Shown: positions 17,479-63,454 of the stretch, one piece after another
Position numbering within the stretch: position 1 is the first letter of the stretch
Layout of the letters: each line of letters opens with the position of its first letter
Source: a phage
Sequence record: PZ445524.1
Length of the DNA: 64,000 nucleotides
Direction: 5' to 3' (one strand)
Program-made: the position numbers and the translations under genes
The notes under the pieces: generated by a model
What the model saw: the letters and a program-made list of their open reading frames with translations, nothing else
Told to the model about the DNA's origin: nothing
The model's database searches: none

Positions 17479-17560
17479 TTTTATTTCCTTTTTAATTTAA
17501 TTAACAGTTGGTGCTATGACGATGTATGACCTCATAGCTGGTCAGTGAGATAATTATAAT
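17479..17560 (-). promoter_or_regulatory. gene 32 mRNA leader / autoregulatory translational operator
   Basis: - strand reads ...UUAAUUAAAUUAAAAAGGAAAUAAAUG; unstructured AU-rich tract adjacent to a structured region. Confidence 0.6.
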
Positions 17561-17562
17561 CT

Positions 17563-17570
17563 ATTTATAA
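17563..17570 (-). promoter_or_regulatory. late-type promoter TATAAATA upstream of gene 32
   Basis: Reverse complement TATAAATA about 85 nt upstream of the gene 32 ATG. Confidence 0.55.
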
Positions 17571-17577
17571 TAAGCAA

Positions 17578-22800: not shown

Positions 22801-23719
22801 AGTGTTTGAAGTTGGCGATGATACATCTTATCACTTTTATTCTCAACGTAATAAAGACGGGAATATAACGTTTAGCATTAATGGTACTGTGATGCCAAAA
22901 AATGTTAACGCTTCAGGCACGTTGAATGCGAATGGCGTAGCAACATTTGGTAGTTCAGTTACAGCCAATGGTGAATTCATTAGCAAGTCTGCAAATGCCT
23001 TTAGAGCAATAAATGGTAATTATGGATTCTTTATCAGGAATGATGGCGGCAGCACATATTTTATGCTTACTGCATCGGGTGATCAGACTGGCGGATTTAA
23101 TGGATTACGTCCATTATCAATTAATAATCAATCTGGACAGGTTATAATTGGTGAAAGCTTAATCATTGCTAAAGGTGCTACTATAAATTCAGGCGGTTTG
23201 ACTGTTGTTAACTCGAGAATTCGTTCTCAGGGTACTAAAACATCTGATTTATACACCCGTGCACCAACATCTGATACTGTAGGATTCTGGTCAATCGATA
23301 TTAATGATTCAGCTACTTATAACCAATTCCCGGGTTATTTTAAAATGGTTGAAAAAACTAATGAAGTGACTGGGCTTCCATACTTAGAACGTGGCGAAGA
23401 AGTTAAATCTCCTGGTACACTGACTCAGTTTGGTAATACACTTGATTCGCTTTACCAAGATTGGATTACTTATCCAACGACGCCAGAAGCGCGTACCACT
23501 CGCTGGACACGTACATGGCAGAAAACCAAAAACTCTTGGTCAAGTTTTGTTCAGGTATTTGACGGAGGTAACCCTCCTCAACCATCTGATATCGGTGCTT
23601 TACCATCTGATAATGCTACAATGGGGAATCTTACTATTCGTGATTTCTTGCGAATTGGTAATGTTCGCATTGTTCCTGACCCAGTGAATAAAACGGTTAA
23701 ATTTGAATGGGTTGAATAA
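19844..23719 (+). CDS. 34: long tail fibre proximal subunit gp34
   Basis: 1291 aa; repeated TPKKL/ATETRRG motifs; late promoter and AGGAG SD upstream. Confidence 0.95.
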   Translation: MAEIKRKFRAEDGLDAGGDKIINVALADRTVGTDGVNVDYLIQENTVQQYDPTRGYLKDFVIIYDNRFWAAINDIPKPAGAFNSGRWRALRTDANWITVSSGSYQLKSGEAISVNTAAGNDITFTLPSSPIDGDTIVLQDIGGKPGVNQVLIVAPVQSIVNFRGEQVRSVLMTHPKSQLVLIFSNRLWQMYVADYSREAIVVTPANTYQAQSNDFIVRRFTSAAPINVKLPRFANHGDIINFVDLDKLNPLYHTIVTTYDETTSIQEVGTHSIEGRTTIDGFLMFDDNEKLWRLFDGDSKARLRIITTNSNIRPNEEVMVFGANNGTAQTIELQLPTDISVGDTVKISMNYMRKGQTVKIKAAGEDKIASSVQLLQFPKRSEYPPETKWVTVQELVFNGETNYVPVLELAYIEDSDGKYWVVQQNVPTVERVDSLNDSTRARLGVIALATQAQANVDLENSPQKELAITPETLANRTATETRRGIARIATTAQVNQNTTFSFADDLIITPKKLNERTATETRRGVAEIATQQETNAGTDDTTIVTPKKLQARQGSESLSGIVTFVSTAGATPASSRELNGTNVYNKNTNNLVVSPKALDQYKATPTQQGAVILAVESEVIAGQSQQGWANAVVTPETLHKKTSTDGRIGLIEIATQSEVNTGTDYTRAVTPKTLNGRKATESLSGIAEIATQVEFDAGVDDTRISTPLKIKTRFNSTDRTSVVALSGLVESGTLWDHYTLNILEANETQRGTLRVATQVEAAAGKLDNVLITPKKLLGTKSTEAQEGVIKVATQSETVTGTSANTAVSPKNLKWIVQSEPTWAATTAVRGFVKTSSGSITFVGNDTVGSTQPLESYEKNSYAVSPYELNRVLANYLPLKAKAADTNLLDGLDSSQFIRRDIAQTVNGSLTLTQQTNLSAPLVSSSTGEFGGSLAANSTFTIRNTGTMTPRIVFEKGPASGANPAQSMSIRVWGNQFGGGSDTTRSTVFEVGDDTSYHFYSQRNKDGNITFSINGTVMPKNVNASGTLNANGVATFGSSVTANGEFISKSANAFRAINGNYGFFIRNDGGSTYFMLTASGDQTGGFNGLRPLSINNQSGQVIIGESLIIAKGATINSGGLTVVNSRIRSQGTKTSDLYTRAPTSDTVGFWSIDINDSATYNQFPGYFKMVEKTNEVTGLPYLERGEEVKSPGTLTQFGNTLDSLYQDWITYPTTPEARTTRWTRTWQKTKNSWSSFVQVFDGGNPPQPSDIGALPSDNATMGNLTIRDFLRIGNVRIVPDPVNKTVKFEWVE

Positions 23720-23727
23720 GAGGTATT

Positions 23728-24843
23728 ATGGAAAAATTTATGGCAAAGTTTGGACAAGGATATGTCCAAACGCCATTTTTATCGGAAAGTAATTCAGTAA
23801 GATATAAAATAAGTATAGCGGGTTCTTGCCCGCTTTCTACAGCAGGACCATACGTTAAATTTCAGGATAATCCTGTAGGAAGTCAAACATTTAGCGCAGG
23901 CCTTCATTTAAGAGTTTTTGATCCTTCCACCGGAGCATTAGTTGATAGTAAGTCATATGCTTTTTCGACTTCAAATGATACAACATCAGCTGCTTTTGTT
24001 AGTTTCATGAATTCTTTGACGAATAATCGAATTGTTGCTATATTAACTAGCGGAAAGGTTAATTTTCCTCCTGAAGTAGTATCTTGGTTAAGAACCGCCG
24101 GAACGTCTGCTTTTCCATCTGACTCTATATTGTCAAGATTCGACGTATCATATGCTGCTTTTTATACTTCTTCTAAAAGAGCTATCGCATTAGAGCATGT
24201 TAAACTGAGTAATAGAAAAAGTACAGATGACTATCAAACTATTTTAGATGTTGTATTTGACAGTTTAGAAGATGTTGGAGCTACCGGGTTTCCAAGAAGA
24301 ACGTATGAAAGCGTTGAGCAATTCATGTCAGCGGTTGGTGGAACTAATAACGAAATTGCGAGATTGCCAACTTCAGCTGCTATAAGTAAATTATCTGATT
24401 ATAATTTAATTCCTGGAGATGTTCTTTATCTTAAAACACAGCTATACGCCGATGCTGATTTACTTGCTCTTGGAACTACGAATATATCCATTCGATTTTA
24501 TAATGCATCTAACGGATATATTTCTTCAACACAGACTGAATTTACCGGGCAAGCTGGGTCATGGGAATTAAAGGAAGATTATGTAGTTGTTCCAGAAAAC
24601 GCTGTAGGATTTACGATATACGCACAGAGAACTGCACAAGCTGGCCAAGGCGGCATGAGAAATTTAAGCTTTTCTGAAGTATCAAGAAACGGCGGCATTT
24701 CGAAACCTGCTGAATTTGGCGTCAATGGTATTCGTGTTAATTATATCTGTGAATCCGCTTCACCTCCGGATATAATGGTACTTCCTACACAAGCATCGTC
24801 TAAAACTGGTAAAGTGTTTGGGCAAGAATTTAGAGAAGTATAA
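23728..24843 (+). CDS. 35: long tail fibre hinge protein gp35
   Basis: 371 aa; SD AAGAGG. Confidence 0.9.
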   Translation: MEKFMAKFGQGYVQTPFLSESNSVRYKISIAGSCPLSTAGPYVKFQDNPVGSQTFSAGLHLRVFDPSTGALVDSKSYAFSTSNDTTSAAFVSFMNSLTNNRIVAILTSGKVNFPPEVVSWLRTAGTSAFPSDSILSRFDVSYAAFYTSSKRAIALEHVKLSNRKSTDDYQTILDVVFDSLEDVGATGFPRRTYESVEQFMSAVGGTNNEIARLPTSAAISKLSDYNLIPGDVLYLKTQLYADADLLALGTTNISIRFYNASNGYISSTQTEFTGQAGSWELKEDYVVVPENAVGFTIYAQRTAQAGQGGMRNLSFSEVSRNGGISKPAEFGVNGIRVNYICESASPPDIMVLPTQASSKTGKVFGQEFREV

Positions 24844-25573: not shown

Positions 25574-28500
25574 ATGGCTACTTTAAAACAAATACAATTT
25601 AAAAGAAGCAAAACCGCAGGTGCACGTCCTGCTGCTTCAGTATTAGCCGAAGGTGAATTGGCTATAAACTTAAAAGATAGAACACTTTTTACTAAAGATG
25701 ATTCAGGAAATATCATTGATTTAAGCATTTCCGCTGGCGGTAATATCAGTGGAAATATCACTCAAACTGGTGATTATACACAGACTGGAAAATTTAATTT
25801 AATTGGTCCGCAAATTGTAGCAAGCGGTGGATATATTGAGTTTAATTATCGTACTACTGGAAGTGGGGCTTGGTCCGGTCAACATACTGCGAAAGCTCCA
25901 ATTTTTGTAGATTTAAGCTCAGCTACTTCCACATCTGAATATAATCCTATAATTAAACAGCGCTTTAAAGATGGAACTTTTTCTGTTGGTACGTTAGTAA
26001 ATGAAGGAAGTTTTAAGATTCATTATATCAATGAAACTGGGGATTCGAAATATTGGACTTTTAATCGTAATGGTAATTTCCAAGTTGTCACGGGCGATTT
26101 ATTTGTCAGCAACGGTAATATTTCCGCTTCAGGCAATATTAACTCGGCAACTGGATTTGTTTCTGCACCGCAGATTAATACAAAAACCATAGTTTTTGAT
26201 ACAAAAGCATTCGGACAATACGATTCGCAGTCATTAGTTCAATATGTTTATCCTGGAACCGGTGAAACAAACGGAATCAATTACCTTCGTAAAGTTCGAG
26301 CTAAATCAGGCGGAACCATTTACCATGAAATCGCTTCTGCGCAGACCGGTAAGAATGATGAAATTTCTTGGTGGACCGGAAATACACTTACTACTAAATT
26401 AATGGGTCTTCGTAATGATGGCGCAATGGTATTACGTCGTTCACTTGCTATTGGCACAATTACCACCGATGAAAATACTAACAACTATGGTTCTCCTACT
26501 CCAATGGGAGAAAGATATATTGCTTTGGGCGATGCTGCCACTGGTTTAAAATACATTAAGCAGGGTGTTTATGATTTAGTAGGTAATTGGAATTCTGTTG
26601 CTTCTATTACTCCTGATAGTTTCCGTAGTACTCGTAAAGCATTATTTGGACGTTCCGAGGACCAAGGCGGAACGTGGATTATGCCTGGAACGAACGCTGC
26701 TCTCTTGTCTGTTCAAACCCAGGCAGATGTGAATAACGCAGGTGATGGTCAAACCCACATTGGATATAATTCTGGCGGTAAAATGTCCCACTATTTCCGC
26801 GGTAAAGGCCAAACTAATATTAATACTCAAGAAGGCATGGAAGTTAACCCTGGTATTTTGAAATTGGTAACTGGCTCTAATAACGTACAGTTTTATGCCG
26901 ACGGAACAGTATCTTCAATACAAAGAATTAAATTTGATAACGGATTAGTTCTTACTGGTGCTAGACCCGACGGTATTCAACTTGACGCTCCTACAACAAC
27001 AGATGGCACTAAAACTATATTGTGGGCCGGCGGTACTCGCCCAGGTCAGAATAAAAGTTATCTATCTATCAAAGCATGGGGTAATGCCTTTAATGCATCT
27101 GGCGATCGTGCTCGTGAAACGGTTTTTGAGGTAGGTGATGGACAAGGTTACCATTTTTATTCTCAACGAGTTGCTCCCGGATCAGGTTCTACCGTCGGAC
27201 CTATTCAATTTCGAGTTAATGGTGGTTTATTAACTGCAGGTAGTATTGTTGCTTCTGGTTCTATTACAACTGAATCTTCTTTGAGTGTTAATAATGGCAT
27301 GTCAGTAATCGGTGAATTAAAGGTTGGTGGTACCGCAGATAACTTCCGTATTTGGAACGCTAAATACGGCGCTATTTTCCGTCGTTCAGAAGATTCCTTG
27401 TATATAATTCCTACAGCCATTAACCAAGGCGAAAGCGGTGGAATAAGCGATATAAGACCGTTCAGTATTAACCTTGGCACTGGCTCTGTTGCAATGGGTA
27501 ACCATACTCAAGCGGGTAAAAACCTTTTCACGGTTGATAACGTTTCTAAATTAGTACAAACTGATGTTCGTTTCCGTGTTAACATGGATTCCGACGGTAT
27601 TGTTTTGAATGCTTCTTCTCAAGCAGCGTCTAACTTTATCCAAGGACGTAAAGCAGATGCTCCGAAATGGTATCTCGGTATTGGCGACGGTGGTAACGTT
27701 GTTCGTTTACATAACTATACCTATTCCCACGGTATTGCATTAAACTCTGATACTGTAGATATTACTAAGCCTCTTAAAATTAATAATATTCGAATTGGTA
27801 CAGATGGCAACATCACAGGTGGTACTGATAATTTTGCCAATTTAAATACAACGTTAAACAATAAAGTCAATGTTGGTGGTTGGTCAGGCGGAGCTACAAC
27901 TGGGTGGTATAAGTTTGCGACAGTTAATATTCCTCAATCTACTGGAACAGTATCATTTAAAATATATGGTGGTTCAGGATTTAATTTTAAAAGTTATGGG
28001 CAAGCTTCTGTCGCAGAAATAATTCTTAGAACTGGAAATAATAATCCTAAAGGACTTAACGCTACATTATGGAACAGAACTTCTGAAGCATTTTCACAAA
28101 TTGCTACAGTTAACACAAGCAATGATACATATGACGTTTATGTTTATGTGGGAGGATATTCAAATGCTTTAGTCGTCGAATATTCATGTACCAGTAATAG
28201 TACAGTAACTGTGGTTGGTGTTAATGGAGGAATTCAACCTATTGTTGAAACACTTCCAGAAGGTCATGTAGTAGGTAAAACTGTAAAATTATTGAATAAC
28301 ATTGATGGAATGTTTTCAGCTGGTGAATCTGATATTATTACTCGCGGTGAATTTGTTACCAATAACCAAAAAGGTTTACGCATTAAATCTAGAGGCAACG
28401 ATATTGATTCTAATGCTGTTATTATTCGAAATGATGGTGGAAGTTTTTATATTCTAGCTACAGATAAGAATACATCATCAAATCCTGATGCTGCATCAGG

Positions 28501-29467
28501 TAATTGGAATAATTTAAGACCTTTCTCCATTAATATGGCTGATGGTCGCGTTGGTATGAACCATGGTCTAAATATTACCGGCGGTGGCTTGAATGTTACT
28601 GGTGGCTTGAATGTTACTAGTGGTAATACTAGTTTAGGTAATATCTCGTCTCGTGTAGTAGCAGGTTGGCGAGGAGCGTCTGGTTGGGCTGATAACTCGG
28701 ATACAATGAAATCTAAAATCACCTTTATGGCAGACCATGGGGATTTATCTAATTCAGGCAGTTATTATCCTATTGTAGGTGCATACAGCAACTATGGTTC
28801 AGCGGGTTATCGTCAAACCTTTGAATTTGGATGGGTCGGCTCTGGTACCACCGCTGGATGGCGAGAAGGTATTATTCGTATTCGCGGAGATAGTTCTAGC
28901 GGCCAGCAAGCAAGATGGCGATTTACAATGGATGGTATTTTAGATTGCCCGGGTAAAGTACAGATGCCACAAACAAGTGCATTTGGTGTCAATACAACAA
29001 ACGCACTTGGTGGAAACAGTATAACATTTGGTGATAGCGATACTGGTATTAAGCAAAATGGCGATGGATTATTAGACATATATGCGAACAACGTACAAGT
29101 ATTCCGTTTCCAAAACGGTGATTTGTACTCATACAAAAATATAAATGCTCCAAACGTTTATATTCGTTCTGATATTCGTTTAAAATCCAACTTTAAGCCT
29201 ATCGAAAATGCACTTGATAAAGTTGAAAAACTTAACGGTGTCATTTACGATAAAGCTGAATACATCGGTGGAGAGGCAATTGAAACTGAAGCAGGTATTG
29301 TGGCTCAAACGTTACAAGACGTTTTACCAGAAGCTGTCCGTGAAACAGAAGATAGCAAGGGTAATAAAATACTCACTGTTTCTTCTCAAGCCCAGATTGC
29401 TCTTCTAGTTGAAGCTGTGAAAACACTTTCTTCTCGTGTAAAAGAACTTGAATCTAAACTTATGTAA
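25574..29467 (+). CDS. 37: long tail fibre distal subunit gp37 with C-terminal S74-like intramolecular chaperone domain
   Basis: 1297 aa; N-terminus MATLKQIQFKRSK; last ~100 aa SDIRLK...GIVAQTLQDVLPEAV match the endosialidase-chaperone pattern. Confidence 0.9.
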   Translation: MATLKQIQFKRSKTAGARPAASVLAEGELAINLKDRTLFTKDDSGNIIDLSISAGGNISGNITQTGDYTQTGKFNLIGPQIVASGGYIEFNYRTTGSGAWSGQHTAKAPIFVDLSSATSTSEYNPIIKQRFKDGTFSVGTLVNEGSFKIHYINETGDSKYWTFNRNGNFQVVTGDLFVSNGNISASGNINSATGFVSAPQINTKTIVFDTKAFGQYDSQSLVQYVYPGTGETNGINYLRKVRAKSGGTIYHEIASAQTGKNDEISWWTGNTLTTKLMGLRNDGAMVLRRSLAIGTITTDENTNNYGSPTPMGERYIALGDAATGLKYIKQGVYDLVGNWNSVASITPDSFRSTRKALFGRSEDQGGTWIMPGTNAALLSVQTQADVNNAGDGQTHIGYNSGGKMSHYFRGKGQTNINTQEGMEVNPGILKLVTGSNNVQFYADGTVSSIQRIKFDNGLVLTGARPDGIQLDAPTTTDGTKTILWAGGTRPGQNKSYLSIKAWGNAFNASGDRARETVFEVGDGQGYHFYSQRVAPGSGSTVGPIQFRVNGGLLTAGSIVASGSITTESSLSVNNGMSVIGELKVGGTADNFRIWNAKYGAIFRRSEDSLYIIPTAINQGESGGISDIRPFSINLGTGSVAMGNHTQAGKNLFTVDNVSKLVQTDVRFRVNMDSDGIVLNASSQAASNFIQGRKADAPKWYLGIGDGGNVVRLHNYTYSHGIALNSDTVDITKPLKINNIRIGTDGNITGGTDNFANLNTTLNNKVNVGGWSGGATTGWYKFATVNIPQSTGTVSFKIYGGSGFNFKSYGQASVAEIILRTGNNNPKGLNATLWNRTSEAFSQIATVNTSNDTYDVYVYVGGYSNALVVEYSCTSNSTVTVVGVNGGIQPIVETLPEGHVVGKTVKLLNNIDGMFSAGESDIITRGEFVTNNQKGLRIKSRGNDIDSNAVIIRNDGGSFYILATDKNTSSNPDAASGNWNNLRPFSINMADGRVGMNHGLNITGGGLNVTGGLNVTSGNTSLGNISSRVVAGWRGASGWADNSDTMKSKITFMADHGDLSNSGSYYPIVGAYSNYGSAGYRQTFEFGWVGSGTTAGWREGIIRIRGDSSSGQQARWRFTMDGILDCPGKVQMPQTSAFGVNTTNALGGNSITFGDSDTGIKQNGDGLLDIYANNVQVFRFQNGDLYSYKNINAPNVYIRSDIRLKSNFKPIENALDKVEKLNGVIYDKAEYIGGEAIETEAGIVAQTLQDVLPEAVRETEDSKGNKILTVSSQAQIALLVEAVKTLSSRVKELESKLM

Positions 29468-29469
29468 AA

Positions 29470-29487
29470 GAGGGCTTCGGCCCTCTA
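29470..29487 (+). other. UUCG-tetraloop hairpin between genes 37 and 38
   Basis: AGAGGGC-UUCG-GCCCUCU directly after the gene 37 stop, 10 nt before the gene 38 SD. Confidence 0.6.
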
Positions 29488-29497
29488 AGGATTTTTA

Positions 29498-30283
29498 ATG
29501 GCAATTGTAGGTGTTCCTGGCTGGATTGGTGAATCTGCCGTGAATGAAACTGGACAACGTTGGATGGATGCTGCGATGAAAGCTGTTCGTGTTTCAGTTC
29601 CCGGCTGGATGAGCTCAATGGCTGGGCAATCTAAAGAAGTATATTATAGCGTTGGTGCTAGTAATTCTTATAATAAAGACACACTAATAAATTGGATAAA
29701 AGCCCAAGGTAGTACTCCTGTTGTTATTACAATTACAGGAAATATTGTTTCTCAATCTACAGGTGTTCCATGCTTAGATTTTCCTAGCTCATTAACTAAT
29801 GCATACGTGACACTTAATATCAATTCAGGCGTGTATGTTTGGGGTCGCGGCGGTAATGGTGGAAATAACTCTGCTGGTGGAGCAGGAGGAACTGCAATAA
29901 ATAACGGAATTGGAACTAGATTACGTATTAACAACAATGGTGTTATCGCAGGCGGTGGCGGCGGTGGCGGTGGTGGGTATTATTCTCCTATGTCACAAAT
30001 GAAATTAACCTTTGGCGGTGGCGGCGGTCGTCCGTTTGGTGCTGCTGGTGGATCTGCCAACATGCAATCAGGCGCAACTGCTGGTACTATTTCCGCGCCA
30101 GGTAAAGGGTCTGTCAACGGTGTCTATAATGGCGGAAACGGCGGTGATGCTGGTGCCGCAGGTGGTAAATGTAATATTCGTGGTCAAGGATCAGAATATA
30201 ACGGCGGTGCTGCGGGTAAAGCTGTTACTGGTAATGCTCCAACTTGGACTAAAGTTGGTACAATATACGGTTCAAGAGTATAA
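29498..30283 (+). CDS. 38: receptor-recognising adhesin gp38 (T2-type, glycine-rich)
   Basis: 261 aa; poly-Gly tracts (GGGGGGGGGYY, FGGGGGRPFGAAGG) separating short variable segments. Confidence 0.85.
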   Translation: MAIVGVPGWIGESAVNETGQRWMDAAMKAVRVSVPGWMSSMAGQSKEVYYSVGASNSYNKDTLINWIKAQGSTPVVITITGNIVSQSTGVPCLDFPSSLTNAYVTLNINSGVYVWGRGGNGGNNSAGGAGGTAINNGIGTRLRINNNGVIAGGGGGGGGGYYSPMSQMKLTFGGGGGRPFGAAGGSANMQSGATAGTISAPGKGSVNGVYNGGNGGDAGAAGGKCNIRGQGSEYNGGAAGKAVTGNAPTWTKVGTIYGSRV

Positions 30284-37262: not shown

Positions 37263-37526
37263 TCATAGTTCAATCTCAGCGATTTTCATTTCATTACTAT
37301 TAATAGCCGCTTTAAGACTATCTGAAAGAATTACATTCCAATGGTCATTCATATGACCACTAACTAAGCGTGTAATTTCTTCAGGAGTTGAAAAATAAGG
37401 CTGATCAGACTCCCAATGCGATAGTCCCAAGCGAGTATAAATCATACCTTCATCATCGCTAGAATATTCAACTGACACAAACTCATCAGTTATTTTATGT
37501 TTAGCGTAATAAAATTTAAATTTCAT
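37263..37526 (-). CDS. hypothetical protein (87 aa)
   Basis: ATG 37524-37526. Confidence 0.5.
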   Translation of the reverse strand: MKFKFYYAKHKITDEFVSVEYSSDDEGMIYTRLGLSHWESDQPYFSTPEEITRLVSGHMNDHWNVILSDSLKAAINSNEMKIAEIEL

Positions 37527-37531
37527 TTTAC

Positions 37532-37738
37532 TCAATAATCCGCTAAAAGATCAACGATTGCATCACGAAGACACTTATTCGCAATACGTTTAAGAGCAAT
37601 TTCAGTTTCTGGAGCATTTTGAATAATCATTGAATTCAATTCAGCCTCAGCAAACTGAAGTTCTTTAACTAATTCAGCTTTATATTTTCCTTGCCCTTTC
37701 TTAGCTTTTGCTCGTTTTAATTCAGCTGTAGTAAACAT
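37532..37738 (-). CDS. hypothetical protein (68 aa)
   Basis: ATG 37736-37738 with GGAG SD; early promoter upstream. Confidence 0.5.
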   Translation of the reverse strand: MFTTAELKRAKAKKGQGKYKAELVKELQFAEAELNSMIIQNAPETEIALKRIANKCLRDAIVDLLADY

Positions 37739-37820
37739 TTTATTCTCCAAATCCGTATCAGTTGATAGTTGTATATTACCACAGTCCTTGTGGTATGTAA
37801 ACCGTTTTGGGAAAAAATTT

Positions 37821-39639: not shown

Positions 39640-41817
39640 TTAGGCCGCAAGGGCCTTCATAGTTTTAGCGATTTGGGAAACTTCATCATCACTTAAAGAG
39701 TTGCGATAACCGATGAAGTCGGAAACAATACGGAATTTCTTGGTAAACTCAGCAACCATTTTATCACTGTTTTTTGAAGCATTATTTGATAATACATCAA
39801 AAAGATTAGTTACTGTCCAGATGTCATGACCGATGGTATCTTTTCCACCATTAAAATATACACCCTGTAATGAACTAACCATATTAGCAAGTCGTGTATA
39901 TTCTTCAGAAACTTCATCTACACTGAAGTACTTCATCATAAAATCTAACTCAGGATACTTGATAATTTTATCAATATATCGTTTAGCTGAACTTGAATAA
40001 CCTACATACTTATCATAATCTACATCATCAAAAGCATCTACATATAAATCACGCAAAGCTTCAAAAATACATTGGCACTGACCGAGTTCTTTTACCTTTT
40101 TCTGTAAAAGCGGACGAATAACATAAAATTCATTAATGCCAATAAGATTAGCCATACGAATCAAAATATTCATAGATGGATGACAAAGAGATGTAGTACC
40201 ATCCATAGAGAAAATATCAGAACGATGCATATACGCTACATAACCAGTAATTTCATCTGCTTCTGATGTGAGCGTAAATAATTCCTCTTTTTCCCAGCGC
40301 CCATCTTTAATTTCAAACTTAAATGCTGTAGCAGCTTTAGGACGAGGAGCTTTACTTTTAACTACCTTTGGAATATAGCTTTTAACTAAAGCTTCAATTT
40401 CTGACAAATAATGAATGTTAACTTCATCACTTTCAAACATCGCCATAATATCAGGAAGTAAATCAATCTGCGATTCTACTTCTGGATTAATAAACAGAAG
40501 ACGCTCATTGTGATGAATATTCAAAGTGTTATTAAATTCACTATCATCTAACGCATGCGCTAATCCACGAACAATATTAACACGATTTTTAATATTATCA
40601 ATAACGATATTAATTTTTGTTGTATTAATACCAAACAGACGATAACTTGATGCAACGGCTGAAGTTTCATGACTTTGCTTAATGCGCTTCAGTCGAGGGT
40701 CAAGATTTACTTCATACACAACTCCTGCATTGCATAACTTACTGTCAGGTTCAAACATGCTCTGCATCTTTTTATATGACAGATTTTTAGTCGTGAATTT
40801 GACTGAATTACTAATCATATAATCTCGAGCAGAATACCCCATCTTCATCAATTCACGATATGTGTGACGAGGAGATGTAGATTCTTTAAATCGTTTTACA
40901 TCTTCATTAAATGCTTTCTCACTGAGTTCTTTAACTCGTTCAATAATATTTTTACGAGTACGATCATCCAGTGAAAGAGCCTCGCGTGATGGAGCAATAT
41001 CCAATGAACCCATTGGAAACTTAATGTAATTCACTTCATTGCGAATGCTTAGCCAGTTACGGTCTCTAATAACACCATCGATAGGATAAACAATACCGCC
41101 GTAGATAGCATATAATCCACCACGATCAGGCCAGTATCTTTCTGGATTTACGCCGTAATAATCATCGAAATCCGGAAAATAATCAATTTCGCGGTCAAGA
41201 CCATTAATGATAGCCAAATCTTTGAATGGTCGCATGATATAAGAAACTTCATAAGCAAAGTTTCTAAAGTCTTTTTCTTCAACTGGAACTACGATTTCAA
41301 TACCAGTTTTATCATCTGGACCCATTTCTTTTACGAATGTAGGTTTAATTTGTGGACCATCGCCATCCATGTAAGCTACATAACCACGAATTTCACCTTT
41401 ATGATACGAAGTAATACTAAATGTATCAGTATAACTAAATGGAGATTTAGAACCTAAACCAAATCCGCCAATGAAATCGTTAGATTCAGCCTTAGATGAA
41501 CTGAAGTATGAATTATACAAACCAGGAGAATTATCATCACCCTGAATATCAAAATCACTCATACCCGGACCAAAATCTCGACAAACAAATCGTGGGTCTA
41601 AACGTCCAGGAACTTGTATGATAAATTTTTCAGGATTTCCATTAAGTGCATGGGCATCAATCATGTTGGTAATCAATTCACGGACTACTGCGCGAATCTT
41701 GTTTGTATACAAATCAGATGATAGAATTTTAAATACTTTAGGAGATGCTGTGATGCTAAATGCTTTTGATTTAGAACCATTACCAAGAATTGTTTCTTTT
41801 TCAGTGGTGATAATCAT
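39640..41817 (-). CDS. rIIA: rapid-lysis protein rIIA (GHKL-type ATPase-like N-terminus)
   Basis: 725 aa; N-terminal ATP-binding motifs ELITNMIDA and FGLGSKSPF. Confidence 0.92.
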
Positions 41818-41827
41818 AATTTCCTCA

Positions 41828-42031
41828 TTAATTCATATTACGCTTAATAACTTCAGCAACTTCTAGTAATTCATCTTTAGTTGCGGTGTCGGATTGAATT
41901 TTATCTCTAATATCCTTAAAGCGGTTTTTAAATTCTTCGGCTTCTCCCATATCGAAAAAGCGTTGAATGATTCTATATTCTCGATGAACTGCTTTATCAA
42001 AAAGTTCTAAATTTACTCTATATGATTTCAT
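41828..42031 (-). CDS. hypothetical protein (67 aa)
   Basis: ATG with GAGGA SD; early promoter upstream. Confidence 0.55.
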
Positions 42032-42054
42032 TTCAATATCCTCATTTGCCCAAT

Positions 42055-42086
42055 TAATTATACCACATCCTTGTGGTAAAGTAAAC
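42055..42086 (-). promoter_or_regulatory. early promoter upstream of ORF 41828..42031
   Basis: - strand GTTTAC overlapping the gene 60 stop, then a -10-like element. Confidence 0.45.
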
Positions 42087-42618
42087 TACTGGCTCATCCA
42101 TTCTTTACGAAGGTCAGCATTATCTCCCATGAGCATTTCAAAAAGCTCTTTCCAGTTCTCAGGAAGTTTAACAACATCATATACTGGATTTTGAATCATT
42201 TCACGATATTCAGATTTTTCCAAAGAGCCAAGTCCTTTAATATAACGGATGCTATGTTTAGGTAAAGCATCTTTAGCACTCTCATATTCAGCGACTGTAT
42301 AAAACCATTCTTGTTTTTTACCGACCTGAGCGATGATTACAGGAGTTTTGACAAAGCGAATTCTTCCTTGTTCAAACAGTTCTGGCCAATTACTAAAAAA
42401 TCCGAGCAAAGAAGGATAAATAGAACCTAATCCAATAATCTCTTAATTATGAGGTATTTCTATAGATAGCCCGAAGGCTATCCATCGTGATCTGCGTCTG
42501 TCATAATAGCGACATTCGCATAGTTCATTGAAGAGGATTTAATAGAACGACGAACATTGTTCTGCAATTTATATTTTTTCATATCAACGCTAGAAGAATC
42601 AATTTTTACAAATTTCAT
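42086..42618 (-). CDS. 60: DNA topoisomerase II small subunit gp60, with 50-nt translational bypass (codons 1-46 at 42481..42618, codons 47-160 at 42086..42430)
   Basis: ATG 42616-42618 (MKFVKIDSS); codon 46 GGA then UAG; landing GGA 42431-42433; resumes UUA GGU (LGSIYPS...). Confidence 0.9.
42431..42483 (-). other. gene 60 translational bypass element (take-off GGA, UAG stop, stem-loop, landing GGA)
   Basis: - strand reads GGA UAGCCUUCGGGCUAUC...UUAUU GGA; UUCG tetraloop hairpin directly 3' of the take-off codon. Confidence 0.85.
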
Positions 42619-43417
42619 TATACACCTCATAGAACTTTTCATCAGGAATCCAACCGCGTTTAAATTCATTAAATGCTCGGCCGAATAATTTTGAATTCAC
42701 AGTTATATTATTAACTGATTTCCATTTAGCAACTCCCGTTCGTTTATAATGATCGGGGTCATATTTCGTGACGTACCATTCATATAAATTTGGTATTAAT
42801 TTTACAGCCTCTGGATTTGTCGCTGATTTATTATACCATGGTTTCGCTTTTTCAAGTTCAGCTGCTTTTGCAGTAGCAGCAACAGTATTTCCAATACCAA
42901 CTAATTTTTCAGCTTTAATGCGTGGATCATTAACATGAAGACGAAAAACTTCGCCTTTTTCATTTTTAAAGCATGTCATGCCTTTAATTCCAGGAAGCTT
43001 AACACCTTTATTAACACCGCACCATTCCTTTGGGTTAAATGATCCTTTAATTAATAAGGCGCATTTACCCGATTTAATACTTCTCATTAAAACTTTATCT
43101 TTCATAAAGTTTTTTGACCATTCAGATACTGCTCTTTGATGGTAAATTCTAGCAATTTCATATAATTTACTAGAACGTAAATATTTTTCAGTGTTTAACA
43201 TTCTATTCATCGCATATGCCATTTCACGATTACGATGAATTTTATATAGTAGAAAATGTGCTAAAAAGTGTTCACGAAAAGTCAGTTTCACCAAATTTTC
43301 TTTATCATCAGAACCTCCCATTGATCTTGGAAGGATATGATGAATTTCACCCTTAAATTTAGAAACGCGGGTTTTACCCCGCACTATTAAGTCATTATAG
43401 ATTTTTTCGTAATTCAC
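42599..43417 (-). CDS. mobA: HNH homing-endonuclease-like protein (Mob family) between genes 39 and 60
   Basis: 272 aa; HNH motif EIHHILPRSMGGSDDKENLVKLTFREH; no ATG near N-terminus (GTG start), overlaps gene 39 end and gene 60 start. Confidence 0.65.
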   Translation of the reverse strand: MNYEKIYNDLIVRGKTRVSKFKGEIHHILPRSMGGSDDKENLVKLTFREHFLAHFLLYKIHRNREMAYAMNRMLNTEKYLRSSKLYEIARIYHQRAVSEWSKNFMKDKVLMRSIKSGKCALLIKGSFNPKEWCGVNKGVKLPGIKGMTCFKNEKGEVFRLHVNDPRIKAEKLVGIGNTVAATAKAAELEKAKPWYNKSATNPEAVKLIPNLYEWYVTKYDPDHYKRTGVAKWKSVNNITVNSKLFGRAFNEFKRGWIPDEKFYEVYNEICKN

Positions 43418-44945
43418 CTACTGTTATCCATTTACCATTAATCTGTACTTCATCATTTTCATTTACGATAATTGTATCGCCATTTAGTTCGAAAGTAAAC
43501 CACTCGCCATCTTCTTTTTCTTCAAACGCCTTTTCACCAAGAACTAGACCAGTGATTGCGCAAATATCAAATAGTTCTTTGTTTTTAAGCATATCGGCAT
43601 ATGACATACCCCAGCTATTAAGAACTTTACCGCGCAATGGATAACCACCATGAAGTTCTTTATCGCGAACATCAATAAGATATCCGATAGCAGAATCACC
43701 CTCAGTCAAGAAAAGAGTAGTGTCAGCATCTTTACCGCAAAGATTCGCTTTGATATGTTTATGAACCTTAGCTTTAGAAGCCTTTTTAGCTGCTTTAGTT
43801 TCTGCTGCTTTTTCTGCCGCCAATTTACGAGCCAAAGCAGCTTCAATAATCGGCATCAGAATTGCTTCATTATTTAGAATAGCGCGTGAAATCTTTTTAG
43901 CATCAAGCTGAATATGACTACGAATTTCACCAAATGGAGAAGTCAAACGCTCTTTAGTTTGAGAATCAAATCGCATGTTTTTCATATCACGAACAAACAT
44001 AACGATAGTCAAACATTCTTTAACACGTGCTTTAGTTACATCAATTTTGAACTTACGTTTGATTTGTGGAATAAGGTCTTCACAAATATCATCCATAACA
44101 CAGTCAATGTGATGGCCACCATTCTTAGTGTGGATGTTATTCACATAAGTTAATTGACGAAATCCATCCGGTGAACGACCAACCGCAATAGAACAATTTT
44201 CTTGTTCTTGAACAATAGCATGTTCATCATACTGCCGTGCATATTTCTTAAAATTGCCCTGAACCTTTTTACCATTAAAGGTAAATTGGATATCAGGATA
44301 AACAACAGCAAGTGTCTGGAGACGATCTAGTGTAATGTCAAGATAAACTTGGGACAGCTCATTAGTTTCAAATGACATAAAATCAGGAATGAAAGTAACA
44401 CGAGTTCCTTTCCATTTTCCAGGAATATCTTCCCATGATTTATTTTCCATGCCATTTGAACAACGAACTACAATATTATTTTGACCATCGCCAGTTTCAC
44501 CAACAAACATCACAGAAAAAATGTTTGTCAAACTAGAACCAACACCATTCATACCGCCAGTGACGCGTTCTTTATCATCACCAAAGTTACCACCTGCTTT
44601 TGGAATAGTCCATGCAGCAACAGGACCAGGAATTTCTTCACCGGTAGGTGTTTTAACCATCGCTTGTGGAATACCACGACCGTTATCTTCAACTGTTACT
44701 TGATTGTTTTTAATAGTAACATTAATTTTATTTGCGAATTTAAACTTAGTACGAATACCTTCATCTACTGAGTTATCGATAATTTCATCAATAAGCTTAA
44801 CAAGACCAGGTACATACTGAACACTTTCCCATTTACCAAACAGAAAGCGCTCATGCATTTCATTAGCAGAAGAGCCAATATACATGCCGCTACGCTTTTT
44901 GATATGTTCAATATCGCTCAGAATTTTAATTTCATTCTTAATCAT
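43395..44945 (-). CDS. 39: DNA topoisomerase II large subunit gp39 (GyrB-like ATPase)
   Basis: 516 aa from ATG 44943-44945 with GAGGA SD; ATPase motifs GLVKLIDEIIDNSVDE and GRGIP. Confidence 0.92.
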   Translation of the reverse strand: MIKNEIKILSDIEHIKKRSGMYIGSSANEMHERFLFGKWESVQYVPGLVKLIDEIIDNSVDEGIRTKFKFANKINVTIKNNQVTVEDNGRGIPQAMVKTPTGEEIPGPVAAWTIPKAGGNFGDDKERVTGGMNGVGSSLTNIFSVMFVGETGDGQNNIVVRCSNGMENKSWEDIPGKWKGTRVTFIPDFMSFETNELSQVYLDITLDRLQTLAVVYPDIQFTFNGKKVQGNFKKYARQYDEHAIVQEQENCSIAVGRSPDGFRQLTYVNNIHTKNGGHHIDCVMDDICEDLIPQIKRKFKIDVTKARVKECLTIVMFVRDMKNMRFDSQTKERLTSPFGEIRSHIQLDAKKISRAILNNEAILMPIIEAALARKLAAEKAAETKAAKKASKAKVHKHIKANLCGKDADTTLFLTEGDSAIGYLIDVRDKELHGGYPLRGKVLNSWGMSYADMLKNKELFDICAITGLVLGEKAFEEKEDGEWFTFELNGDTIIVNENDEVQINGKWITVGELRKNL

Positions 44946-45014
44946 CACTTATCCTCGTTTGGTTTCGGGAATATTATACTCCAATAATCATAAAGCTAAA
45001 GGCCCGAAGGCCTT

Positions 45015-45275
45015 TTATTTAAAACGAATAGTCGAATCCTTGAAGAATAGTCCAGAACATACTGTTCCTTCTACTTTCTGCCCAGTAGGTCCAATAGCAC
45101 GAAATCCAGTATGCTGGAAATCATTTTCAGAGCAACCGAACCAATTATATCCAGTGATTTCAATATTAGTAAAACCACTTGAAGACAAAACTTTGGTTGC
45201 ATTATCAGCATCAGTACATCCTATTAAAGACACTGCTAATACTAATGCTGCAATAGAACGATTAATATATTTCAT
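45015..45275 (-). CDS. putative lipoprotein (86 aa)
   Basis: Signal peptide with lipobox SLIGC. Confidence 0.5.
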   Translation of the reverse strand: MKYINRSIAALVLAVSLIGCTDADNATKVLSSSGFTNIEITGYNWFGCSENDFQHTGFRAIGPTGQKVEGTVCSGLFFKDSTIRFK

Positions 45276-45280
45276 AATTT

Positions 45281-45652
45281 TCACTTAAATTTAATGGCTT
45301 GAAGAAGACTAATAACTCTCAAGCGGCTTCTTTCATCTTTAACTGTAAAAGAAAGAGGGTCACCAGATTTCATAGTGATAGTGCATCCAAAATCAAAATT
45401 TTCGGGAACTTCTTCGAAGAAGTCAAATTCTTCAGCATAAATTAGAACATTACTCTGCATACTGTGAAGAATTTTTCCATTATTTCCAGACGCTGTACTA
45501 ATCATCGTAACATTATGACCTTTCATATCTTCAACGATAAATTCGCTTGTAGATATTACAGCATTAATAGAACCATTCCTATAAATAGCAGACATTAGAT
45601 ATTTCTTTTCTTCGCCTTCGCGAATACGATATTTCTTACCGATTTTAAACAT
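45281..45652 (-). CDS. hypothetical protein (123 aa)
   Basis: ATG 45650-45652 just after the upstream stop. Confidence 0.5.
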   Translation of the reverse strand: MFKIGKKYRIREGEEKKYLMSAIYRNGSINAVISTSEFIVEDMKGHNVTMISTASGNNGKILHSMQSNVLIYAEEFDFFEEVPENFDFGCTITMKSGDPLSFTVKDERSRLRVISLLQAIKFK

Positions 45653-45654
45653 AA

Positions 45655-45831
45655 TCACCCTTTAAGTAAGTCGTAAAAACCACCATTCACATGCTTAGGA
45701 GCAGAAGGCCGACGAGTAGACAAACGATGACATTTAGGGCAAACATCATTTTCTCGTTCAGAAATCTTTTTAATTTTTTCATATTCATGCCCGCAGTCTT
45801 CAGATTGGCATTTATAATCATACATTGGCAT
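45655..45831 (-). CDS. small zinc-ribbon protein (58 aa)
   Basis: Hand-translated MPMYDYKCQSEDCGHEYEK...DVCPKCHRL; two CxxC pairs. Confidence 0.45.
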   Translation of the reverse strand: MPMYDYKCQSEDCGHEYEKIKKISERENDVCPKCHRLSTRRPSAPKHVNGGFYDLLKG

Positions 45832-55898: not shown

Positions 55899-55906
55899 TA
55901 TTTATA
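55899..55906 (-). promoter_or_regulatory. late promoter TATAAATA for soc
   Basis: Reverse complement TATAAATA about 30 nt upstream of the soc ATG. Confidence 0.7.
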
Positions 55907-56738
55907 AACCATTTTCAAATCTCTTTATCATGTTTATATAATTTTCGTCAGGATAACCTAGGCTAACTGCTAGCTTTCTAAAATTGACATATTTAGGTTT
56001 GTTGTTATTAATCCATAATTCTCTAAGCTCTTTTTCATAATTCCATTTAAGTTGATTTCTGCGTGCAATTTTGCTTAAAGTTTTTCCTTTAGCTTTTAAA
56101 GCTTTTTCAGATGACTGTTTTAATTTTTGAATATTTAAAACTTCTTCTATAGATAAATTATTTTCCTTTGAATATCTTATGCAAAAATCTTTTACTATGG
56201 CTATTAGGCAATTTTTGTGAGTACCTAAAATTTCTGGATTATTTTCTTCAACTAAAATTCCCCAATACCTTCGATAGCGAGGCATATCCCTTGAAATCCA
56301 GTCATTATACCAAAAATCAAAGTTGGAATACATGAAAGATTTTCTTTTACGAAGAGTATCTTGGTTTATCCATTGCTCACGTTTATCAGCCCATAACTTA
56401 ATAGTAAAGTCTTTCTCTAAGTCAGAAAGCTTCTTAAATTGTGAGCTATTTACTGAGGTCATTCTCTGGAATGCATTCAGCAATCCAAATCTTCCAGTTG
56501 AACATAAGAGATAGTGAACATATATGTGTTGATATATTGGGAGATATACTCTATTCCAAGGATATATTTTAAAATCACTATACTCAGGAAATGCACATTT
56601 AGGAAGTATATGATGGGCTTCTGTTTTAGATTTAATGTGAGTGTTTAACTTATACTTATCTATAATTTTTAAATACTCATCTAAAAGTTCCCATTGCGGG
56701 AACTTTTCTTTAAGAGCAGATTTGAAATTAATATCCAT
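55902..56738 (-). CDS. HNH homing-endonuclease-like protein (Mob-type) adjacent to gene 56
   Basis: 278 aa from ATG 56736-56738; motif EAHHILPKCAFPEY; basic C-terminal region; start overlaps gene 56 3' end by 11 nt. Confidence 0.65.
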   Translation of the reverse strand: MDINFKSALKEKFPQWELLDEYLKIIDKYKLNTHIKSKTEAHHILPKCAFPEYSDFKIYPWNRVYLPIYQHIYVHYLLCSTGRFGLLNAFQRMTSVNSSQFKKLSDLEKDFTIKLWADKREQWINQDTLRKRKSFMYSNFDFWYNDWISRDMPRYRRYWGILVEENNPEILGTHKNCLIAIVKDFCIRYSKENNLSIEEVLNIQKLKQSSEKALKAKGKTLSKIARRNQLKWNYEKELRELWINNNKPKYVNFRKLAVSLGYPDENYINMIKRFENGL

Positions 56739-57246
56739 TATCTTGACGTTCAAAATTATGTTTGTTCTTCAAATAATAAAGTTTAAAGATTTCTTCAGCC
56801 GACATTCCAAGAGCAATAAATTTATTCATGAAAAAGTGAAATTGGTCAATCAGTTCAAATTTAATTTCAAGCTGATCTTCGGGAGATAAATCTTGAATTT
56901 TCTTGGATTGCATTTCAGAATAACGTTTCTTCCAAGGTTTCCATACAGCAGAAGCTTCTTTTTCACCATTACTCATACCACCAAGAGAAGTATATAGCTC
57001 GCGAGTTTCGTCTGCGATATAATCGTCTTGGTTTCGCAGCCAAGCAAGAACTTCTCCTGCAGTTTCAAGTGAATCGGGATGACGATTTGTTTCTGGTTTA
57101 TCATTAGCCAAACGAATCTGTAAATGCCGCTGCATATCAAGCATAACCTGCAATGGGTCTTTTTCATCACCGAGAATATCCCAGTATTCATTTTGAGCTT
57201 TATCAACACCTTCGATCAAATGAGCACATTCATTAAAGTGAGCCAT
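56728..57246 (-). CDS. 56: dCTPase/dUTPase gp56 (MazG-like)
   Basis: 172 aa from MAHFNECAHL; middle-promoter-like element upstream. Confidence 0.85.
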   Translation of the reverse strand: MAHFNECAHLIEGVDKAQNEYWDILGDEKDPLQVMLDMQRHLQIRLANDKPETNRHPDSLETAGEVLAWLRNQDDYIADETRELYTSLGGMSNGEKEASAVWKPWKKRYSEMQSKKIQDLSPEDQLEIKFELIDQFHFFMNKFIALGMSAEEIFKLYYLKNKHNFERQDNGY

Positions 57247-57280: not shown

Positions 57281-57305
57281 ATTATACAATAAATATATAA
57301 AGCAA
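57281..57305 (-). promoter_or_regulatory. MotA-dependent middle promoter for gene 56
   Basis: - strand TTGCTTTA (MotA box) then 11 nt then TATAAT, about 40 nt upstream of the gene 56 ATG. Confidence 0.6.
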
Positions 57306-57317
57306 TAAGGAGGACAT

Positions 57318-61973: not shown

Positions 61974-63147
61974 TAAATTCTTCCATATCACTTAACTGTT
62001 CAAGGTCAGTTTCTAAATCAGCTGCTGATTTACTTTTACTTTCTGGAGATTTAAATTTTTCAACCTTTGAGTTAATCAATTCATCAACTTCAGCTTCAAC
62101 AATTTCATTACTATCAATAGCACCTAACTGATAAGCACGTTTAATAGCATCTCGGAATGGTTGATGCTTAAATAAAGGACCCCAGAATGTAGTACAGTTA
62201 GTATCTTTTGCACGCCAAGATTTTTCTTCGCGAATCATCTCGCCGGTTTCTTCGTCAAGAAATTCACGAGCATACCAGCCATTTTTTGGTTTTACTACAA
62301 ATCCTAATTCTAGAGCCATATCTAACAATCCAGAATAAGGATCGATACCACCGTCAAATTTAACATCAATAAAGAATTTACTTTTTTCTTTAACGGTACG
62401 AGATTTTTCTACATTTAGAACAAATTGATACCCCTGAAGATCAGAACCATCTTTAATCTGACGCTTACCGATAATGAATACAGTATCAGCCGAATACATT
62501 ACGCCTGTACCACCTGTCATCACGGTTTTACTAAACATTTCAATTGTTTCAATTGTATGGTTAACCGCAACACATGGAATATTTTTAATGCTAAAATAAG
62601 GAGTAACAATACGGAATAATGACTTCAGTGATTTAGCACGAGTCATATCTGCCACAGATTTTTCATTCAAGGCATCTTCCGTTTCTTTCTTAGAAGCCAT
62701 ATTACCGATTGAGTCGATGAATACAATAACCTTTTCACCACGCTCAATAGCTTCAAGCTGGTTCACCATATCAATTTTCAGCTGTTCAACTGACTGAATT
62801 GGCGTATGAATTACTCGTTCCGGGTCAACTCCCATGGATCGCAAATAAGCTGGAGTAATACCAAATTCGCTATCATAGAATAAACAAACCGCGTCAGGAT
62901 ATTTGTTCAAATACGCTGCAACCATAGTCAAAGACATATTTGATTTAAAGTGTTTAGAAGGCCCTGCGAAAATAGTTAAACCAGACTGCATACCGCCATC
63001 AATCGCACCAGAAATAGCAATATTAAGCATTGGGATTTTTGTGCGAATTACATCCTTTTCATTAAAGAATTTAGATGTAGTCAGTTCAGCAGTCATTTTA
63101 GAAGTGGAAGCTTTAATCAAACGGGATTTTAAATCTGCAATAGACAT
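61966..63147 (-). CDS. uvsX: UvsX recombinase (RecA/Rad51 family)
   Basis: 393 aa; Walker A GPSKHFKS; acidic C-terminal tail. Confidence 0.93.
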   Translation of the reverse strand: MSIADLKSRLIKASTSKMTAELTTSKFFNEKDVIRTKIPMLNIAISGAIDGGMQSGLTIFAGPSKHFKSNMSLTMVAAYLNKYPDAVCLFYDSEFGITPAYLRSMGVDPERVIHTPIQSVEQLKIDMVNQLEAIERGEKVIVFIDSIGNMASKKETEDALNEKSVADMTRAKSLKSLFRIVTPYFSIKNIPCVAVNHTIETIEMFSKTVMTGGTGVMYSADTVFIIGKRQIKDGSDLQGYQFVLNVEKSRTVKEKSKFFIDVKFDGGIDPYSGLLDMALELGFVVKPKNGWYAREFLDEETGEMIREEKSWRAKDTNCTTFWGPLFKHQPFRDAIKRAYQLGAIDSNEIVEAEVDELINSKVEKFKSPESKSKSAADLETDLEQLSDMEEFNE

Positions 63148-63454
63148 TCATTTTTTCCATAGGCATCATTATATTTTTCTCGCGGTTTATAATAAAGGGT
63201 TTATACTTAGAGTTTAACTACATTAAAACTTATTTAAGATAGAATAATTTTATCACTCAATCTTTTAGCATTATCGCTTGAAGTCTCAGTTAACTGAGCA
63301 TTTGGCTATTCGATGAACTTCTCTCTTTTCTAATCAATATAACAAAAGAAGTCCCAAAAAGCAAACAGACCTAAACCGATAATAAGCAATAAAGGTCCTA
63401 ACATTTATTCCACCGGTTAAAGATAAATAACTTTCTAATAATAGTTCATAATTT

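Follow-up and report, generated by a model that had tools for sequence, protein, structure and literature searches.

Gene 60 of phage T4 is the classic departure from triplet-by-triplet decoding. Bypassing was shown experimentally for the T4 sequence (Huang 1988; Weiss 1990; Samatova 2014; Agirrezabala 2017; all as cited in PMC7026636), and in T4 about 99% of ribosomes are reported to continue per nucleotide, with roughly half completing the hop and the rest stopping after the first open reading frame (ORF), ORF1 (PMC7026636). The bypass cassette is carried by the MobA element, 1097-1106 nucleotides (nt) long, which encodes an HNH endonuclease and an in-frame C-terminal extension of about 43 amino acids (aa) for the upstream ORF; on the downstream side it supplies an N-terminal extension, in which a homologous replacement region accompanies about 30 unique residues, and the bypass cassette, which in the T4 clade is followed by 9 more nt (Manning & Atkins, bioRxiv 10.1101/2022.08.31.505936). 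The gap breaks MobA's own target site, protecting the carrier genome (PMC7026636; bioRxiv 10.1101/2022.08.31.505936; PMC11194080), and experimental homing of the element has been reported (Bonocora 2011, as cited in PMC7026636 and bioRxiv 10.1101/2022.08.31.505936). Here we describe the gene 60 locus in sequence record PZ445524.1, a stretch of phage DNA of 64,000 nt that was analysed whole and is called the window below. On the evidence of its sequence, the locus is almost certainly the T4 gene 60 programmed translational bypass cassette, carried by a T4-like (Tequatrovirus) phage other than T4, and alignment places it in clade 1 of the T4 gene 60 bypass/MobA element family. The finding is already known in the sense that the site is base-for-base that of T4 gene 60, studied since 1988, and another identical copy adds nothing to the mechanism.

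The minus strand of 41900-42800 was read and every coordinate was recomputed by script, which gave the following parts of gene 60:

42623-42628 (-): Shine-Dalgarno sequence GAGGUG, 4 nt upstream of the ATG, from reading of the sequence
42618-42616 (-): start codon ATG of gene 60, by script
42481-42618 (-): ORF1, 46 codons from the ATG to the take-off GGA, supported by script, T4 identity and the Protein Data Bank (PDB) entry 5np6_C
42483-42481 (-): take-off codon GGA, codon 46, by script
42480-42478 (-): UAG directly after the take-off GGA, by script
42431-42480 (-): untranslated coding gap of 50 nt, from the UAG through the landing GGA, equal to the T4 feature 'non-coding translational bypass region'
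42433-42431 (-): landing codon GGA, by script
42086-42430 (-): ORF2, 114 codons plus the TAG stop, by script and by a Pfam TOPRIM_C match (E = 6e-8)

The original prediction had read a 46-codon frame ending in GGA-UAG at 42478-42483, a gap of 50 nt with a matching GGA at 42431-42433, a restart at UUA GGU UCU and a product of 160 aa, and all of these were reproduced by script. ORF1 encodes MKFVKIDSSSVDMKKYKLQNNVRRSIKSSSMNYANVAIMTDADHDG, and the gap, read from 42480 to 42431, is TAGCCTTCGGGCTATCTATAGAAATACCTCATAATTAAGAGATTATTGGA. The decoding frame reopens at UUA GGU UCU from position 42430 and closes at the TAG at 42088-42086, such that ORF1 and the post-landing sequence join into exactly 160 aa, with ...AIMTDADHDG-LGSIYPSLLGFFSNWPELFEQGR... 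across the junction. The codons of take-off and landing are the same GGA, read by the same glycine transfer RNA (tRNA-Gly); they stand 50 nt apart, a distance of 2 mod 3, and relative to ORF1 the frame of ORF2 is the third (offset 2 in the script numbering). Stops occur in all three frames within the gap, and therefore no single insertion or deletion yields one ORF.

In a mechanical ORF list, ORF1 starts 17 codons further upstream, from an in-frame ATG at 42669 inside the neighbouring gene mobA (63 aa in all), and the frame 42619-42669 is open upstream of the accepted start in T4 too. We rejected this ATG as the start of gene 60 and took the one at 42618, because the latter is preceded by the strong GAGGUG at 42628-42623 and because four diverged relatives of the cassette close the frame upstream and keep the MKF... 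start; the extension is probably unused.

A query of 1.5 kb around the site matched 503 phage records. The T4 records among them are 98-99% identical to the query and annotate gene 39, mobA, gene 60 and a 'non-coding translational bypass region', and both T4 and T4T records put this label on exactly the 50-nt stretch described here. Alignment with T4, the check named in the original prediction for its claim of a classic T4 hop, gave identity at 188/188 nt for ORF1 plus gap and at 160/160 aa for the joined gp60. Downstream of the gap there are nine nucleotide differences from T4 in ORF2, all of them synonymous, and the ORF2 part has no amino-acid difference from T2 gp39; ORF2 is thus kept by purifying selection in the frame read after landing. 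PDB 5np6_C, the nascent chain of 46 residues from the take-off-stalled ribosome complex, is identical to ORF1, and PDB 8yo3_C, a T4 gp39-gp60 fusion solved by cryo-electron microscopy, contains the joined 160-aa sequence at 100% identity.

Pfam on the joined gp60 gave TOPRIM_C at residues 74-159 as its sole match above cutoff, with the junction outside it; since this leaves the junction region uncovered, colinearity was tested against T2 gp39, which is unsplit and 605 aa long. Residues 1-473 of the window gp39 are identical to residues 1-473 of T2 at 472 of 473 positions, and residues 27-160 of the joined gp60 align with T2 residues 472-605 gapless (E = 1e-92), straight through G46|L47 and reading ...IMTDADHDG|LGSIYPSLL... 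at the junction. Thus the claim of a T4-type split 39/60 arrangement, as opposed to a fused T2-type gene, is borne out. The hop, as predicted from this alignment, restores the exact sequence of the uninterrupted enzyme within the Toprim acidic motif DxDxDG. With gap and ORF1 identical to T4 and a gapless match to T2 gp39, the arrangement, judged as an alignment, is far beyond chance.

The signals known to act in T4 bypassing have the following counterparts in the window:

42462-42485 (-): take-off stem-loop of 10 base pairs with a UUCG tetraloop, the take-off GGA and the UAG lying in its 5' arm, from folding and from pairing in four cassettes
42529-42579 (-): putative nascent-peptide bypass signal, codons 14-30 (KKYKLQNNVRRSIKSSS), from T4 identity, with its role taken from the literature
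42493-42520 (-): putative 5' stem-loop, UGCGAAUGUCGCUAUUAUGACAGACGCA, from T4 identity, with its role taken from the literature
42440-42442 (-): putative GAG 'mini Shine-Dalgarno' in AU-rich context, the landing codon lying 6 nt 3' of it, from the sequence, with its role taken from the literature
42363-42414 (-): predicted 3' stem-loop ('forward slippage barrier') region, from folding and T4 comparison

The take-off hairpin, AUGGAUAGCC-UUCG-GGCUAUCUAU (42485-42462), has the tip CC-UUCG-GG and folds at -11.7 kcal/mol as a 23-nt piece and down to -14.0 kcal/mol; its z-score is -4.2, and 0 of 200 shuffles were as stable. The UUCG hairpin of the original prediction is thus real, but it does not simply lie 3' to the take-off codon as had been proposed, the 5' arm holding both the GGA and the UAG. 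For the nascent-peptide signal, KKYK... and residues Y16, Q19, V22, R24, Y33, M39 and T40 have been described (Manning & Atkins, bioRxiv 10.1101/2022.08.31.505936), and all are present, ORF1 being identical at 46/46 residues to T4 gp60 and to the PDB 5np6_C nascent chain. Upstream of the take-off stem-loop, the 5' stem-loop, invariant across clade 1 cassettes (bioRxiv 10.1101/2022.08.31.505936), is T4-identical and folds at -10.1 kcal/mol with a modest z-score of -1.9. The approach to landing runs GAG (42442-42440), AUUAUU, GGA, where a GAG-type mini Shine-Dalgarno is expected 5-7 nt 5' of the landing codon (bioRxiv 10.1101/2022.08.31.505936).

The host part of gene 60 was found in about 498 phage records, and the gap together with mobA at no less than 95% identity in about 42, independent T4 sequences included; these counts contain duplicate GenBank/RefSeq entries. 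Twelve further records carry diverged cassettes, a pattern of conservation already described (Manning & Atkins, bioRxiv 10.1101/2022.08.31.505936), and of these S16, PM2, Thanatos-1 and UoN_LG358_1 were compared in detail. In the four, ORF1 has 44-46 aa starting MKF/MFT, a UAG directly follows the take-off codon, the take-off/landing glycine pairs are GGU/GGC, GGG/GGA or GGU/GGU, the gaps measure 48-52 nt, landing is followed by an ORF of 114-115 codons and the hairpin has a folding energy of -13 to -15 kcal/mol; GAG stands 6 nt before landing also in S16, UoN_LG358_1 and PM2. UoN_LG358_1 (136 kb) was considered as a new host clade for the cassette and rejected, being a Gelderlandvirus with a cassette identical to that of S16. 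In the 10-base-pair take-off stem, every one of the 40 cells across the four distinct cassettes (window/T4, S16, PM2 and Thanatos-1) is paired, a share that drops to 20-43% once the partner strand is shifted by 1-3 columns; where the take-off codon pairs through its third base, A-U, U-A and G-C are all seen. Within the T4 clade, HY01 and G50 carry G-C for a G-U pair of the stem. Salmonella phage GRNsp7 (ON720975.1, 115487-115907), of clade 1, has an extra T after GAGA, giving a gap of 51 nt and a GAG-landing spacing of 7 nt; the extra T is either a natural variant or a homopolymer sequencing error.

The genes and the element around the gap are as follows:

43395-44945 (-): gene 39, encoding 516 aa that form the N-terminal part of the large, GyrB-like subunit of topoisomerase II, from Pfam HATPase_c and DNA_gyraseB and from alignment with T2/T4T
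about 43398-43526 (-): C-terminal extension of gene 39, its last ~43 aa, encoded by the mobile element, from T2 alignment
42599-43417 (-): mobA, an intact gene for a 272-aa HNH-family homing endonuclease, between genes 39 and 60, from comparison with T4T
about 42422-43526 (-): MobA mobile element, about 1105 nt, from alignment with T2/T4T

The original prediction described the bypass at this locus correctly but did not mention the intact mobA between genes 39 and 60, nor that the gap is part of that mobile element. mobA shares 23 nt with the end of gene 39 and 20 nt with the start of gene 60, each time in another frame, and the gene 39 product has 3 aa differences from T4T gp39. The element consists of the C-terminal extension of gp39, the gene mobA, the N-terminal extension of gp60 (which includes the homologous replacement region), the bypass gap and some 9 nt after it, and its 3' end can be placed only to between 42410 and 42431. 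It is not in T2 except for a 43-nt stretch, 42485-42527, which is about 74% identical to the T2 sequence replaced. By size, layout and insertion site, the sequence matches the MobA element of Straboviridae topoisomerase genes. Because the gap belongs to this element, its origin is explained: it is the 3' end of a MobA element of about 1.1 kb inserted in the Toprim region of the ancestral large-subunit gene, an insertion that splits the topoisomerase gene into 39 and 60.

The element and its flanks differ sharply in their divergence from T4T. Within the element the window has 3 mismatches in 1105 positions (43488, 42956 and 42913), against 50 in 1755 in the gene 39/60 flanks, about 2.8% (Fisher p = 3.7e-8 for the contrast), and divergence restarts at 43530 towards gene 39 and at 42409 towards gene 60, that is, no more than 4 nt and about 13-22 nt from the respective element edges. 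Against unsplit-gene phages the host part of gene 60 is 98.4% (T2) and up to 99.0% identical, against T4 97.5%. With the element near-identical to T4 and the host gene 60 nearer to unsplit phages, this is a T4-type cassette in a different backbone, as a mobile element predicts. The near-identity of the element beside 2.8% divergence in the flanks also lends indirect support to a MobA endonuclease that may be active and homing into element-free genomes. The sharp step at the element edges is a clean natural illustration of cassette mobility, a mobility already described (Bonocora 2011, as cited in PMC7026636; Manning & Atkins 2022).

We weighed the explanations that do without a hop. The one that survives best, though we consider it very improbable, is that ORF1 ends as a peptide of 46 aa while internal initiation or termination-reinitiation produces ORF2 separately, with GAG 42440-42442 as Shine-Dalgarno and an AUU within 42439-42434 or the UUG at 42409 as start. 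It draws on the GAG preceding an in-frame AUU AUU GGA, on the UUG at 42409 that the mechanical ORF list takes as a start in the window, and on the T4 ribosomes, about half, that stop after ORF1 (PMC7026636). However, the UUG is CUG in T4, HY01, G50 and GRNsp7 and thus not a conserved start, and the GAG is only 0-3 nt from the AUU codons, too close for initiation. In addition, the Toprim motif DxDxDG, contiguous in T2, is split exactly at the junction, and the identical T4 sequence gives, by mass spectrometry, a single product that lands at GGA 50 nt downstream (bioRxiv 10.1101/2022.08.31.505936).

To a removal or neutralisation of the 50 nt at the RNA level (a mini-intron, processing or editing), or to a hairpin acting as a terminator or stability element with ordinary frameshifting, we assign a negligible probability. 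CC-UUCG-GG hairpins do recur in T4 as RNA-stabilising or terminator elements (Manning & Atkins, bioRxiv 10.1101/2022.08.31.505936), and a gap of 2 mod 3 does require a change of frame. Yet an Rfam scan of the whole window at gathering threshold gave no match at the site or elsewhere, a weak negative, as the group I intron of nrdB was also missed (36.3 bits against 50). A terminator scan of 41800-45100 called none at 42462-42485, where the hairpin is followed by AGAAAUACC and no U-run; promoter-like sites in the same interval numbered 8 against 13.9 in shuffled sequence, fewer than in shuffled sequence and uninformative. Moreover, at 50 nt the gap falls far short of a group I or group II intron, the title of the 1988 report of the discovery, 'A persistent untranslated sequence' (cited in PMC7026636), means that the insert stays in the messenger RNA, and a single +1 or -1 shift fails, frame 0 being closed by the UAG at take-off and the other two inside the gap. 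In T4, splicing, frameshifting and termination also conflict with the original experiments (as cited in PMC7026636). The equally negligible explanation by a sequencing or assembly error or a decaying pseudogene, with gene 60 truly continuous or dead, draws on the general observation that interrupted ORFs are often errors, with nothing specific to gene 60, and fails on the closure of the gap in all three frames, on the same 50 nt in 42 records at no less than 95% identity from many independently sequenced phages, and on ORF2 changes that are synonymous in 9/9 cases against T4 and absent at the amino-acid level against T2, so that the refutation by sequencing error which the original prediction had allowed for does not hold.

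The sequence holds nothing that contradicts the T4 gene 60 cassette reading; some caveats apply. The Pfam HNH match of MobA is weak (E = 7e-4, 20.1 bits, below the cutoff of 21.4), and since it falls under the curated cutoff, the identity of MobA was taken from the annotated MobA of phage T4T, from which it differs by 2 nt and 1 aa (271/272 identical). The covariation of the take-off stem comes from only four distinct sequences, and its score was attained by 34 of 500 shuffles; we regard it as supportive rather than decisive. The 3' stem-loop region, which is encoded by the host part of the gene, carries four silent substitutions relative to T4, at 42409, 42379, 42371 and 42364, and over 64 nt from the landing codon it folds at -6.9 kcal/mol in the window vs -12.0 kcal/mol in T4. 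Given these variants, folding predictions suggest that the efficiency of bypass could be somewhat different from that of T4.

The comparison of folds covered the window and T4, with T2 left out, and over 80 nt from the landing codon the values were -14.9 kcal/mol for the window vs -16.4 kcal/mol for T4, the window forming an alternative extended helix. The window's haplotype in this region is also that of phage Manna, and that of G50 except that G50 keeps the C of T4 at 42409; the 3' stem-loop is described as poorly conserved and possibly not sequence-specific (Manning & Atkins, bioRxiv 10.1101/2022.08.31.505936). A weaker 3' stem-loop as a firm functional difference was rejected, given the near-T4 stability over 80 nt, the haplotype in the cassette-bearing Manna (at three of the four positions in G50) and the poor conservation of the element. 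A more far-reaching proposal, that a T4-like donor passed the cassette on recently through MobA, the flanks undergoing almost no co-conversion, and that the 3' stem-loop variant shared with Manna then gives an efficiency measurably unlike that of T4, seems to us unlikely; if it were true, the phage would be a natural test of the importance of the 'forward slippage barrier'.

Returning to the T4-type bypass, its mechanism can be applied here because the bypass signals are identical to those of T4. The original prediction had called the bypass directly visible, which is overstated: the signals alone can be read in the sequence, and we infer the hop, its efficiency and the roles of the single signals in this phage from the T4 identity and the experiments made in T4. 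As described for T4 (PMC7026636; Manning & Atkins, bioRxiv 10.1101/2022.08.31.505936; PMC11194080), the KKYK... nascent peptide would engage the exit tunnel and translation would slow, with the ribosome pausing at GGA, codon 46, and the UAG in the A site. In that site the hairpin's top would form, block the release factor and mimic a tRNA. Nascent peptide and hairpin top together would prevent termination and trigger a pseudo-translocation driven by EF-G, the ribosome being hyper-rotated. The peptidyl-tRNA-Gly would come off its codon but be kept in the P site while the ribosome slides 50 nt, and after it re-pairs at the second GGA decoding would restart at UUA. Many related records split gene 60 into two coding sequences ('hypothetical protein' or 'topoisomerase'); the correct annotation is one coding sequence, join(42618..42481, 42430..42086), on the minus strand, beside an intact mobA.

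By its alignments, the window is a T4-like mosaic and not T4 itself. Its best 25-kb matches are about 95-96% identical, and it is collinear with the T4 stretch that begins at 131.5 kb, crosses the record end and stops at 24.9 kb, several segments being replaced. The group I intron of nrdB, 6653-7547 (-), carries an intact ORF for a 269-aa HNH_3 endonuclease at 6738-7547 that resembles I-TevIII; the T4 counterpart of this ORF is truncated, 476 nt of the window (6999-7474) are without T4 counterpart, and an E-value scan with Rfam placed Intron_gpI on 6653-6893 at 36.3 bits, under the gathering score of 50. Between nrdB and nrdA, at 8402-9205 (-), where T4 has nrdB.1 and mobE, there is a gene for a 267-aa D12-class N6-adenine DNA methyltransferase (Pfam E = 1.4e-23), a segment with full-length matches in only eight phage records, up to about 97% identity; the dam slot that T4 has between its genes 56 and 61 (T4 16846-17625) is without counterpart in the window (57286-57307). 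The interval between soc and gene 56 holds, at 55902-56753 (-), a 283-aa ORF with an HNH-like 'EAHHILPK' motif in place of segF, the GIY-YIG endonuclease gene of T4; this ORF has no Pfam match and is in 31 phage records, some of which annotate an HNH or homing endonuclease, and the neighbouring gene 56 shares only 80% identity with T4. The tail-fibre tip, 25574-30283 (+), is T2-type and not T4-type, with a gp38 (29498-30283) that contains glycine-rich repeats and falls in the Pfam GP38 adhesin family (E = 6.6e-71), and the distal part of gene 37 (27169-29467) has no T4 match; the phage thus combines a T2-type adhesin with a T4-type split topoisomerase. The segA gene of T4 (T4 23570-24235) is absent, and 63136-63304 is about 169 nt of unrelated sequence between uvsX and beta-gt. 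Small ORFs were seen in segments without T4 counterpart: one of 119 aa at 13978-14337 (-), between td and frd, one of 125 aa at 45281-45658 (-), just upstream of gene 39, and two of 90 and 72 aa at 37263-37750 (-), between ndd.6 and denB; a Pfam scan of the 119-aa and 125-aa ORFs gave no match.

Compared with known systems, the locus is closest to T4 gene 60 and the clade 1 cassettes (Manning & Atkins 2022), with which it shares the GGA/UAG take-off, the GGA landing, the UUCG hairpin, the nascent-peptide signal, the 5' stem-loop, a GAG that precedes landing by 6 nt, an insertion point within the Toprim DxDxDG motif and a 160-aa product that is 100% identical. Unlike T4, the backbone of the window is not T4, the flanks are about 97% identical and the 3' stem-loop region has its four silent changes; mobA is defective in the T4 reference record but intact in the window and in T4T. 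The cassettes of Salmonella phage S16 (Gelderlandvirus), Proteus phage PM2 and Shewanella phage Thanatos-1 have in common with it the insertion site, the linked endonuclease, a CC-UUNG-GG hairpin tip and the AU-rich 3' part of the gap, and differ by an identity of about 73-82% to the window over a 120-nt query (42396-42515) and by compensatory changes in the stem. With the unsplit gene 39 of T2/T6 (605 aa) the likeness lies in the protein, residues 1-473 of gp39 and 47-160 of gp60 of the window being 99-100% identical to T2 gp39, whereas T2 is without the MobA element of about 1.1 kb and the 50-nt gap and makes one polypeptide with no recoding needed; the PDB holds structures of both the split and the unsplit form of the topoisomerase. 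The mitochondrial 'byp' elements of Magnusiomyces capitatus, likened here by their description in the literature (PMC7026636; bioRxiv 10.1101/2022.08.31.505936), are also bypassed inserts, of 27-55 nt, with matched take-off and landing codons and a take-off stem-loop, but they are unrelated in sequence and host, occur many to a genome, and have neither a linked homing endonuclease nor a requirement for a stop codon.

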